This document shows positions 1 through 41,090 of a stretch of 64,000 nucleotides of DNA, piece by piece. The position numbers and the translations under genes are program-made. The notes beneath the pieces are model-generated. The model searched no databases, was not told the origin of the DNA, and worked only from the letters and a program-made list of their open reading frames with translations. Within the stretch, counting starts at the first letter, position 1. Each line of letters begins with the position of its first letter. The stretch is from Waterburya sp. (lineage in GTDB: Bacteria; Cyanobacteriota; Cyanobacteriia; Cyanobacteriales; Xenococcaceae), in the NCBI GenBank assembly GCA_965217895.1, contig CBDCJV010000002.1:2080001-2144000 (forward strand), written 5' to 3'.

Positions 1-225
1 TAAATTTTCATCTTGAATTATCCTTGCCCAAGGATCGTTAGAATATTTTGAAGCTATTTCATTTAAGATCGCCTCTTCAATTTCAGCAATTGATTTTGGA
101 TAGGGAAACCCTTTGTTAGCTTCAATCTCAAAAAGAAAAGCAATTGAATAGTCATCATCAATCCACACAACTCGTTCTATCGAGCCATCATTCCATTTAA
201 TTAAATCGTTAACATATAAATTCAT
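1..225 (-). CDS. tnsB: Tn7-family TnsB transposase, N-terminal part (runs off window edge)
   Basis: Hand translation from ATG at 225, open to base 1: MNLYVNDLIKWNDGSIERVVWIDDDYSIAFLFEIEANKGFP...DPW; resembles Tn7-like TnsB N-termini; directly downstream of tnsA. Confidence 0.8.
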   Translation of the reverse strand, partial: MNLYVNDLIKWNDGSIERVVWIDDDYSIAFLFEIEANKGFPYPKSIAEIEEAILNEIASKYSNDPWARIIQDENL

Positions 226-254
226 AGCTATCTTAGATTTAATTCAAATTAATA

Positions 255-1055
255 TCAAATAACTTGTTTGATAATATTTGTATATGAGTTGTTAAAGACT
301 TTTGCTTCTTCCATTTCAATTACAATTTCTTTTCTGGCAATTAAATGTTTAAATAATGACAAACAAGTATCAGCCTCAAGATCCATATCTCGATCTAATT
401 TTGATGTAATTGTACTAATTCTTGATTTTTTGCTATTTAATATATCTTTCAAAATATTGTTAATGTAATAGCGATTTTCGCTATTTTTTTCAACTGGTAG
501 TTCCCAATGATAATTTGGATGAACCCACTTGACGTTATCAGCCAAAATTTTAGATATTTCTTGTTCTGTTACTAATGCCCAATCAACATTTTGTCTTTCC
601 CAATACAGTTTTTCTATTGTCCTCTTCTTTTCCAATTCTTTAGTCATTTTTATTGTGCGGGAAATTTTAACTAATTTACCACCCTGCTTGATTATCAACA
701 TAAAATCAGTGGTTAGTACATAGGGAACATCTGTGTTTTTATCTTTGGGATATTCAATTCCTATCTCATCAGCAATACAAAATGCCAGATCCAAATCGAT
801 CAATGGATATTGTTCTTGTATATCTTGAACTGCATCACTCCATTCAAGTAAATAAAAAAACCTTAATTCCCAATCAGACATAAAATGATGTACGCGATCG
901 CTTCTCCATCCAGGCGTTCTTGAAACTCTGCCTTGTGAGGGGAAATCTTGAATGGTTATCCAGGGTTTATAATTTTTTCCACTACCTTTTCCTCTTCCCT
1001 CTTTTACAAATCGCTCGAATTTCGTTTTTGTCCAATCCTGCTTGCGTCTACCCAT
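255..1055 (-). CDS. tnsA: Tn7-family TnsA endonuclease (apparent 5-residue deletion after EKL)
   Basis: KEGRGKGSGKNYKPW, RVHHFMSDWE, EQYPL and TTDF motifs match TnsA. Confidence 0.95.
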   Translation of the reverse strand: MGRRKQDWTKTKFERFVKEGRGKGSGKNYKPWITIQDFPSQGRVSRTPGWRSDRVHHFMSDWELRFFYLLEWSDAVQDIQEQYPLIDLDLAFCIADEIGIEYPKDKNTDVPYVLTTDFMLIIKQGGKLVKISRTIKMTKELEKKRTIEKLYWERQNVDWALVTEQEISKILADNVKWVHPNYHWELPVEKNSENRYYINNILKDILNSKKSRISTITSKLDRDMDLEADTCLSLFKHLIARKEIVIEMEEAKVFNNSYTNIIKQVI

Positions 1056-1074
1056 AAAAACAAAGCATAAAAAA

Positions 1075-1166
1075 CAGTACAGTCTTATTAGTTAAGATTG
1101 TACTATTTTATGACATAATTGTCGCGTCGAATTATAAATTGTTTAACCGAATTACCATTGTACACA
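1075..1166 (-). mobile_element. Tn7-like right end inserted at attTn7 downstream of glmS
   Basis: Minus strand begins TGTGTACAAT at 1166; four ACAAT-centred motifs about 19-20 bp apart (TnsB-site-like); 24 bp separate it from the glmS stop; tnsA-proximal end faces glmS as in canonical Tn7. Confidence 0.85.
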
Positions 1167-1190
1167 AAAAACGATAAAAAAGCAAATTCG

Positions 1191-40322: not shown

Positions 40323-41090
40323 TTAATCAGGCAAAAGTTGATTTAAGGCGATCGCAATCTTCGGAAAAGCTAGAGGCGAAATCGCACCTGTTTTGTATTC
40401 GGAAATTTGCCTATAACCGTCAGCTTGAGGTTCAGTATGAACTATTAGTTTTTGATTAACTAAGTCACAGATTACTCCGCCCTAAACGGACGGAGCCTGT
40501 CTTGGACAGCGTTCCCTTGCGCCTGACGGCGACGCGGGGTCTGTCCGCTGCTGTGACCGTTGGTCAATTACCCAATATTCAGGAATGCTATTGCAAGCAT
40601 AAATAATTGTTTTCTGTTCCAAGTCCTTCTTGAAACAATCGCTGCACAACGCGAAGCGTTGAGTCGCGTCTAGCGACGCTCTGGGCGCATAGCCCTGCGG
40701 GGAAACCCCCAAGACCGCGTTGTTTCGCTTCCTCAAGGTTTCCTTAGAAACTTCTATTAGCCAATAGATATTCTCTGGATAGGGATGATGAGCATCATAA
40801 ATGCTCTCTGGTAACTGAACAATGGCGATATCTGGTTCTGGTTCGCTTGCTCTCGAATAGGGGGAGTTGTTTAAAGTAATCGGGTGGGATTCATAGACTT
40901 CCGCTAATCCATCTAAAAGCTTTCTCAAGTATTTAACAGCCCTATGATTGGTATTGCGGTGAGGGACTCCTTCGTGACTCATGGCAGTTATTTCTCCCTC
41001 TAAAAATTCGACTTTTTTACCAGCCAAAACTCCTGAATCAACTAGATCGTGCCATTCTTCAATTGACCATTTATAAGTAGTTATAGTCAT
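40323..41090 (-). pseudogene. Uma2-family endonuclease interrupted by three in-frame mini-element insertions, the last carrying a stop
   Basis: Removing 40845-40862, 40632-40733 and 40464-40562 restores NNSEPEPD, ETLKKDL and EYWVIDLVNQKLIVH...LLPD* (stop at 40323). Confidence 0.85.

Follow-up and report, generated by a model that had tools for sequence, protein, structure and literature searches.

A decayed, predicted immobile Tn7-like element in tandem with an older right-end stump at the glmS attachment site of Waterburya sp.

The stretch of DNA analysed here, a window of 64,000 nucleotides from the genome of Waterburya sp., opens with the right-hand part of a Tn7-like transposon that lies next to the gene glmS. 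It is very probable that this transposon is a 25,525-bp element (G000:C2:2055642-2081166, its right boundary falling at window position 1166) which fills the interval between the glmS stop codon and the stump of an older right end, that it is likely to have arrived by TnsD-directed transposition, and that it must now be predicted to be immobile. The window comprises positions 2080001-2144000 of contig C2 in G000, the genome of the source organism (5.29 Mb, 99.89% complete, 39.1% guanine-cytosine (GC) content), and a window coordinate is the C2 coordinate minus 2080000. The whole genome was used to extend the analysis leftward, and 38 kb of it was taken as loci L003 and L004. The features on which the argument rests are collected in Table 1.

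Table 1. Features of the glmS-linked locus. Plain coordinates are window positions; those marked C2 are contig positions. Strand is given as + or -, with a point where none applies.
Feature	Coordinates	Strand	Basis or remark
glmS (glutamine-fructose-6-phosphate aminotransferase), 635 aa	1191-3098	-	open reading frame (ORF); Pfam SIS 8.1e-47, GATase_6 1e-17
Spacer, 19 nt, glmS stop codon to target-site duplication	1172-1190	.	sequence
Right copy of the 5-bp target-site duplication, AAAAA	1167-1171	.	sequence
Right end	1056-1166	-	terminus TGT at 1166 (alternative 1164); TnsB-type sites
tnsA, 266 aa, apparently intact	255-1055	-	PF08722 1.2e-10, PF08721 2.9e-18, both above cut-offs
tnsB, 710 aa, apparently intact	C2:2078093-2080225; first 75 codons at 1-225	-	crosses the left edge of the window
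tnsC', truncated, 288-aa ORF	C2:2077070-2077936	-	AAA_22 2.4e-22, TniB 9.9e-14
Debris zone, mobile-element remains, 2.9 kb	C2:2074220-2077069	.	group II intron reverse transcriptase (RT) fragment, dispersed repeat, short broken frames
Group II intron RT fragment, 233 aa	C2:2075777-2076478	-	RVT_1 6.3e-34; TIGR04416 7.6e-59, positions 84-312 of 353
Polyketide synthase (PKS)/halogenase-like/DevBCA-type exporter block, 18.1 kb	C2:2056146-2074225	+	domain searches
Left end	C2:2055642-2055791	+	terminus TGTAAAATCA; TnsB-type sites at 2055652, 2055709 and 2055774
Left copy of the target-site duplication, AAAAA	C2:2055637-2055641	.	sequence
Older Tn7-like right end with tnsA 5' stump	C2:2055436-2055637	-	directly left of the newer left end

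The element sits downstream of glmS in a site- and orientation-specific manner, with its right, tnsA-bearing end proximal to the gene and 24 nt (1167-1190) between the terminus at 1166 and the stop codon. The 3' end of glmS is presumed to be the TnsD recognition region of the attachment site attTn7, and related elements in other genomes start 23-26 nt past the glmS stop. Read as the reverse complement from 1166, the right terminus begins TGTGTACAATGG... and leads inward to two contiguous 20-bp TnsB-type sites (1137-1154 and 1117-1134, TAA-N8-RACAATT), followed by a degenerate third at about 1096-1115. Four ACAAT motifs stand at offsets 6, 25, 45 and 66 from the terminus, and at least four such motifs within 70 nt occur in only 512 of the 10,585,776 windows of that length in the genome. 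The first-pass annotation of this DNA had reported the start of tnsB, tnsA, the TGT at 1166, the four ACAAT motifs, the 24 bp to the glmS stop and the flanking AAAAA, and each of these is found where it was placed; it also took the DNA for a Tn7-family element occupying the attachment site of glmS, its tnsA end turned towards the gene, and this is likewise borne out.

The same annotation predicted an opposite end that would open with TGT and be preceded by AAAAA on the plus strand. Such an end lies 25.5 kb to the left, at C2:2055642, where the plus strand reads TGTAAAATCATAATTCGGTTGAACAATTTTAATT. This sequence agrees at 28 of 35 positions with the right end, read inward from the third base of that right end, and an exhaustive ungapped scan of both strands (10.6 million positions) returned no other site with 25 or more of the 35, the runner-up having 24. 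The 18-nt motif TAA-N8-RACAATY has 146 matches in the genome; the five that fall in C2:2055400-2081400 are found exclusively at the two ends and all point inward, at offsets 11, 68 and 133 in the left end (within its first 150 nt) and at 13 and 33 in the right end, where the degenerate third site follows. These predicted TnsB sites are laid out asymmetrically, as contiguous repeats in the right end and spaced repeats in the left, between TGT...ACA termini, and the AAAAA on both flanks makes a perfect 5-bp duplication with the right terminus at 1166. In the 500 bp inside the left end, homology to the fetched relatives is confined to the terminal 72 nt.

Immediately beyond the left end lies the older right end. 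Read inward, it begins TGTAGAATAACCATAAAGTTGGTAAC (old terminus TGTAGAAT...), and next to it ~44 codons remain from the start of a tnsA gene (C2:2055436-2055572), which are 77% identical to the intact tnsA in nucleotides and 69% in amino acids. Over its whole length the stump has 84.1-86.4% identity to the corresponding glmS-linked sequence (right end and beginning of tnsA) in the congeners G021, G024 and G018, and only 76.6% to the newer element. At the junction the old terminus ...TACA is followed by AAAA and then by TGT, so that the final base of the old element is part of the 5-bp duplication, an arrangement that would fit an insertion point measured from glmS. The old right end must once have adjoined glmS, and therefore all the DNA between the stump and the gene arrived later; this interval is bounded exactly by one left and one right end. 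The arrangement is a tandem insertion at attTn7, whereas the target immunity of Tn7 normally blocks a second cognate insertion (PMC11014353). The stump retains one repeat, of a different sequence variant from that of the newer element, and it is plausible that this variant repeat would have allowed escape from target immunity. The older element's repeat variant was also used to look for a matching left end, with only the stump itself and one unrelated match as the result, and the far boundary of the older element was not definable by synteny with G019, G023 and G020, the region downstream of glmS not being conserved.

It could be argued that the two ends, at C2:2055642 on the left and at 1166 on the right, stem from separate insertions, the interval between them being trapped chromosomal DNA or the outcome of a large rearrangement. 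The 18-kb PKS block within the interval is host-like in GC content and is found elsewhere in congeners, the lack of synteny downstream of glmS extends across the genus, and the duplication is a homopolymer, all of which would suit such an origin. Nevertheless, we consider it improbable, for the interval that arrived after the old right end had lain beside glmS starts and finishes exactly with the ends of one repeat family and has matching flanks, and such an order of ends would not have survived a rearrangement of which one breakpoint lay outside the element.

The transposition genes run tnsA, tnsB and tnsC' inward from the right end, and their products are homologous to those of E. coli Tn7. 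TnsA matches the Tn7 TnsA structure 1f1z (1.4e-37), with conservation of the residues aligned to E63, D114 and K132, the catalytic residues of Tn7 TnsA. TnsB, which also matches Mu-transpos_C (1.1e-05), aligns with Tn7 TnsB 7pik over residues 6-697 (3.3e-114), and the D, D and E aligned with the DDE triad are conserved. TnsC' aligns with residues 8-271 of the 523 of Tn7 TnsC (2.6e-50) and is thus not a full-length TnsC; it is 80% identical to aa 1-278 of the 562-aa TnsC of a relative, the homology ending at about aa 278. The expectation that the rest of the element would lie left of the window therefore holds for a cargo region and for tnsC', the latter cut off at about aa 278 of ~560, and extension of the contig, proposed as the way to find tnsC, tnsD, tniQ and cas genes together with the opposite end, yielded that end and half of tnsC without tnsD, tniQ or cas.

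The absence of a targeting module was pursued across the genome by tblastn with 11 queries from relatives, namely TnsA, TnsB, TnsC, TniQ, Cas6, Cas8, Cas7, Cas5, two TnsD-like proteins and a second TniQ. Matches were obtained only for TnsA, TnsB and aa 1-278 of TnsC, apart from a second locus that gave a TnsB of 25% identity; at E<=1e-2 the 5.29 Mb showed no homologue of TniQ, TnsD, Cas6, Cas8, Cas7 or Cas5 from the relatives, and the TnsD-like proteins of 440 and 628 aa likewise had no match in the genome. The TniQ family (Pfam PF06527) gave just one sub-threshold match of 22 bits in the genome, at that second, unrelated locus. Even a permissive tblastn (E<=5) for remnants of tniQ, tnsD or cas genes in the debris zone and the interior of the left end produced noise only. 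The tnsD/tniQ and, as a possibility, CRISPR-associated genes anticipated by the first-pass annotation are accordingly missing from element and genome by this search, and no CRISPR array was seen in the two non-coding stretches of the element (C2:2074200-2077100 and C2:2055400-2056200), in which the TnsB sites are the only direct repeats of 20 nt or more. In Rfam, no family reached the gathering score over 40 kb that comprise the start of the element and the DNA to its left, with no intact group II intron RNA or other RNA recognised.

From the known roles of TnsC and TnsD/TniQ (PMC9881144), the element as it stands would be unable to select a target or to activate its transposase, and the truncation of tnsC, with no tniQ or tnsD found in the genome, leads to the prediction that it is immobile. 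That it should nonetheless be a working Tn7-like or CRISPR-guided transposon, either autonomous or mobilised in trans, appears highly improbable. The intact tnsA and tnsB with their conserved catalytic residues, the two intact ends and the presence of a second Tn7-like core, tnsB-tnsC-tniQ, at C2:4504856-4507941 would speak for retained activity; however, TnsC stops at a point equivalent to residue 271 of the 523 in Tn7 TnsC, the relatives' TniQ, TnsD and Cas homologues are not found in a genome that is 99.89% complete, and cross-complementation is unlikely because the second core is without tnsA and its TnsB shares only 25% identity.

The second core, outside the window and unrelated, merits a brief description of its own. 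Its tnsB encodes 567 aa (the 25% identity being to the TnsB of the relative used as query), its tnsC 288 aa (TniB 2.9e-26) and its small tniQ 175 aa, the last scoring 23.8 bits, below the cut-off; the ORF list beside it contains no large ORF of cas12k size.

Comparison with other genomes places the element in a lineage. A scan with TnsB found 13 loci, and the TnsB proteins of relatives at the same site in other cyanobacteria are 66-81% identical, at least one of these elements carrying tniQ-cas6-cas8-cas7-cas5. The most similar TnsB locus with its downstream genes assembled is L008, at glmS in the Xenococcaceae metagenome-assembled genome MO_167.B27, where glmS is followed after 24 nt by a right end, tnsA, tnsB, tnsC (562 aa), tniQ, cas6, cas8, cas7 and cas5; its tniQ product has 310 aa (TniQ 3.4e-26), its cas6 matches TIGR02807 (8.1e-62) and its cas8 has the N and C domains of Cmx1. 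L008 is a type I-B CRISPR-associated transposon (CAST). It shares with the Waterburya element the distance from the glmS stop, the gene order and the orientation, and the proteins are 72% (TnsB; 68% by tblastn), 66% (TnsA) and 80% (TnsC, aa 1-278) identical, whereas a full tnsC, tniQ and the four cas genes with a Cmx1-type cas8 are found in L008 alone of the two. The end repeats of L008 are of the AATAAAGTTGGTAAC variant, which matches the older stump in G000 and not the newer element. Among the other loci, L019, from a syntenic uncultured cyanobacterium, has a TnsB 81% identical over aa 2-504 with broken tnsB frames, in a Nostoc locus whose end belongs to the same family cas5 and cas7 lie ~1.1 kb inward of it, and clostridial relatives with 50% TnsB identity carry a 628-aa TnsD.

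These likenesses agree with what has been published on type I-B1 CASTs, described by Hsieh and Peters (PMC9881144) as cyanobacterial elements with a separate tnsA and a glmS-targeting TnsD. For AvCAST, the type I-B1 element of Anabaena variabilis, PMC13251919 reports that TnsD directs insertion to a point 24 bp past the glmS stop, the right end being the nearer one, and that the ends have three contiguous TnsB sites on the right and three spaced ones on the left. The Waterburya element resembles it in its cyanobacterial host, separate tnsA and tnsB, end architecture and 24-bp spacing (PMC13251919, PMC9881144), and differs in having neither tniQ, tnsD, cas6/8/7/5 nor a CRISPR array and in its half-length tnsC. 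Like E. coli Tn7 it occupies attTn7 downstream of glmS, has TGT termini and is flanked by a 5-bp duplication (PMC9881144, PMC11014353), and it differs in the absence of tnsD and tnsE and in the sequence of its end repeats. TnsA, a DDE transposase TnsB, asymmetric ends, the 5-bp duplication and the glmS site are thus all present as in a Tn7-like element, with a full TnsC and TniQ/TnsD absent; of the features that mark a type I-B1 CAST, tniQ with the Cascade genes, the CRISPR array and the larger TnsD are absent. On the strength of sequence comparison (the separate tnsA, the 72% TnsB identity to a cas-bearing element and the Nostoc end family), the transposition genes are assigned to the I-B1 clade, and the element is likely a relic of a known kind, decayed and predicted to be immobile, that belongs to the cyanobacterial I-B1-CAST/Tn7 lineage. 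The link to CRISPR holds for the relatives only and not for the copy in G000.

A sequence of events that would account for the locus can be proposed. An older element of the genus-wide variant would have inserted first, its right end 23 nt from glmS, and the present element would have followed by TnsD-directed cut-and-paste at the TnsD-measured position in attTn7, duplicating TTTT and, with it, the T at which the old terminus begins. Insertion sequences (IS) and a group II intron would have entered later and, along with deletions, would have removed the 3' half of tnsC and everything from there up to the cargo, the genes lost in this way perhaps being tniQ, the Cascade genes and array and/or tnsD.

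The largest component of the element, the PKS block, is harder to reconcile with a simple history. Its PKS is a protein of 2591 aa with the domains KS-AT-ACP-KR-DH and a C-terminal 4HBT thioesterase, and it is accompanied by an RTX-repeat protein, an SPW protein, two halogenase-like flavoproteins, an alpha/beta hydrolase and the exporter genes for a response-regulator-DevB fusion, DevC and DevA. The whole block aligns in two further genomes, G020 (C1:2180246-2198210) and G019 (C2:1966610-1984660), at 87-92% identity and with the same boundaries (C2:2056146/2056159-2074196/2074225 in G000), in contexts that differ in the three genomes and are all IS-rich. In the 40 kb of surroundings examined in G020 and G019, there was no Tns or Cas match and no end motif, and IS transposases lie on both sides. 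The block thus appears to be native to the genus and mobile by itself or by means of IS elements.

It is possible, if on balance unlikely, that the block is true cargo that was carried into attTn7 and that this transposon lineage moves biosynthetic clusters within the genus. The block lies wholly inside the paired ends, keeps the same sharp boundaries in three genomes and three contexts and is patchily distributed, the C-terminal region of its PKS being present in 6 of 39 genomes of the genus; moreover, a biosynthetic cluster beside attTn7, that for bicyclomycin in Pseudomonas aeruginosa, provides a precedent (PMC5930311). On the other hand, the copies in G020 and G019 are flanked by IS transposases instead of tns genes or end motifs, their identity to the block is about that of glmS (89-90%), the GC content of the block is host-like (41.6%, versus 34.0% for the tns genes and 39.1% for the genome), and its junction with the tns module is the debris zone. 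We therefore think it somewhat more likely that the block was captured within the genus, or acquired internally at a later time, than that it was imported together with the tns genes, and it seems doubtful that a transposon of the I-B1 CAST lineage took up the 18-kb cluster within the genus and delivered it to attTn7. A full-text literature search gave no description of Tn7-like cargo of this kind in cyanobacteria.

Several of the observations made here weigh against the account of a single Tn7-like element delivered to glmS and since decayed. Since the block occurs without tns genes in G020 and G019 and contrasts with them in GC content, the present element is not simply what transposed. The match between the two ends scored only E=0.44 genome-wide by BLAST-short, which was replaced by the exhaustive ungapped scan. 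A second TGT lies 2 nt further inward and offers an alternative right terminus at 1164; in eight cyanobacterial loci of the same end family the TGT stands 10 nt before the first site, which would favour 1164, and the duplication would then be imperfect (CAAAA and AAAAA, 4 of 5). The terminus at 1166 is the more parsimonious of the two and yields the 24-nt spacing as well. Further, AAAAA is a low-complexity sequence in a genome of 39% GC, and the duplication by itself is weak evidence. The likeness to AvCAST is one of anatomy drawn from published data, the link in sequence running through the relatives. Finally, tnsA and tnsB are still intact, which would not be expected had the element died long ago; its decay may be recent, or some activity may have been retained.

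The 3' end of glmS was searched in 41 genomes, of which 37 matched, and 30 loci were returned; 17 of these belong to the same genus and extend at least 200 nt past the stop. Six of the 17 have TnsA similarity, within ~150 nt of the stop, and two more have end repeats, the distance between stop and TGT being 22-25 nt in these eight; a further three have only a tip-like TGT at the right distance, two are ambiguous and four have nothing. TnsB relatives (E<=1e-20) occur in 7 of the 39 genomes of the genus, G000 included, the best being 72% identical, and in G049 tnsA is frameshifted and tnsC internally deleted. With such remnants across the congener loci and the broken genes of G049, decay at the glmS site is common in the genus.

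One of the three tip-like sequences is that of G020 (locus L024), where 18 nt identical to the tip of the left end of the G000 element (TGTAAAATCATAATTCGG) face glmS from 25 nt past its stop. They stand alone at the attTn7 position, with ordinary chromosomal DNA beyond, and look like the smallest trace left by a departed element whose ends were of the same family.

By itself, the locus is of little importance, given that Tn7-like elements at glmS, the tandem build-up of islands and their decay are already well documented and that the glmS-homing cyanobacterial I-B1 CAST clade has been characterised both biochemically and structurally. It does offer a clean and fully bounded natural example, with two ends, a duplication and an older stump, and it shows the glmS site as a recurrent landing pad in the genus, with recognisable remnants at no fewer than eight of the 17 congener loci. 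It also cautions that tnsA and tnsB beside glmS do not imply a functional or CRISPR-guided element. The tandem junction, if correctly read, would be a natural record, in a duplication that overlaps the old terminal base, of an insertion measured from glmS and not from the neighbouring DNA. The polyketide cluster within the transposon boundaries is the sole part that could lead to something new; were its delivery to attTn7 true, Tn7 and CAST elements would be vehicles for natural-product clusters.

A few minor features complete the description of the locus and its surroundings. Pfam had no match for seven short broken ORFs, of which six lie in the debris zone and the seventh directly beside the old tnsA stump, to its left; by eye they look like IS fragments. 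The one beside the stump, a plus-strand frame at C2:2055275-2055435 (L003 11275-11435), resembles, again by eye, the N-terminus of a SWIM/SNF2-associated protein. The RT fragment of the debris zone has three paralogues in contig C2 (36392-36972, 274691-275271 and 2700468-2701048), each 72% identical over 588 nt. The dispersed repeat of ~50 bp at C2:2075100-2075151 is present in over 30 copies, spread across both contigs and 84-100% identical, one of them in the window at about 40484-40548. In G019, the genome of the closest relative, the final ~314 nt of glmS occur once more (C2:4853712-4854024, 88% identical), ~0.9 kb downstream of the complete gene.

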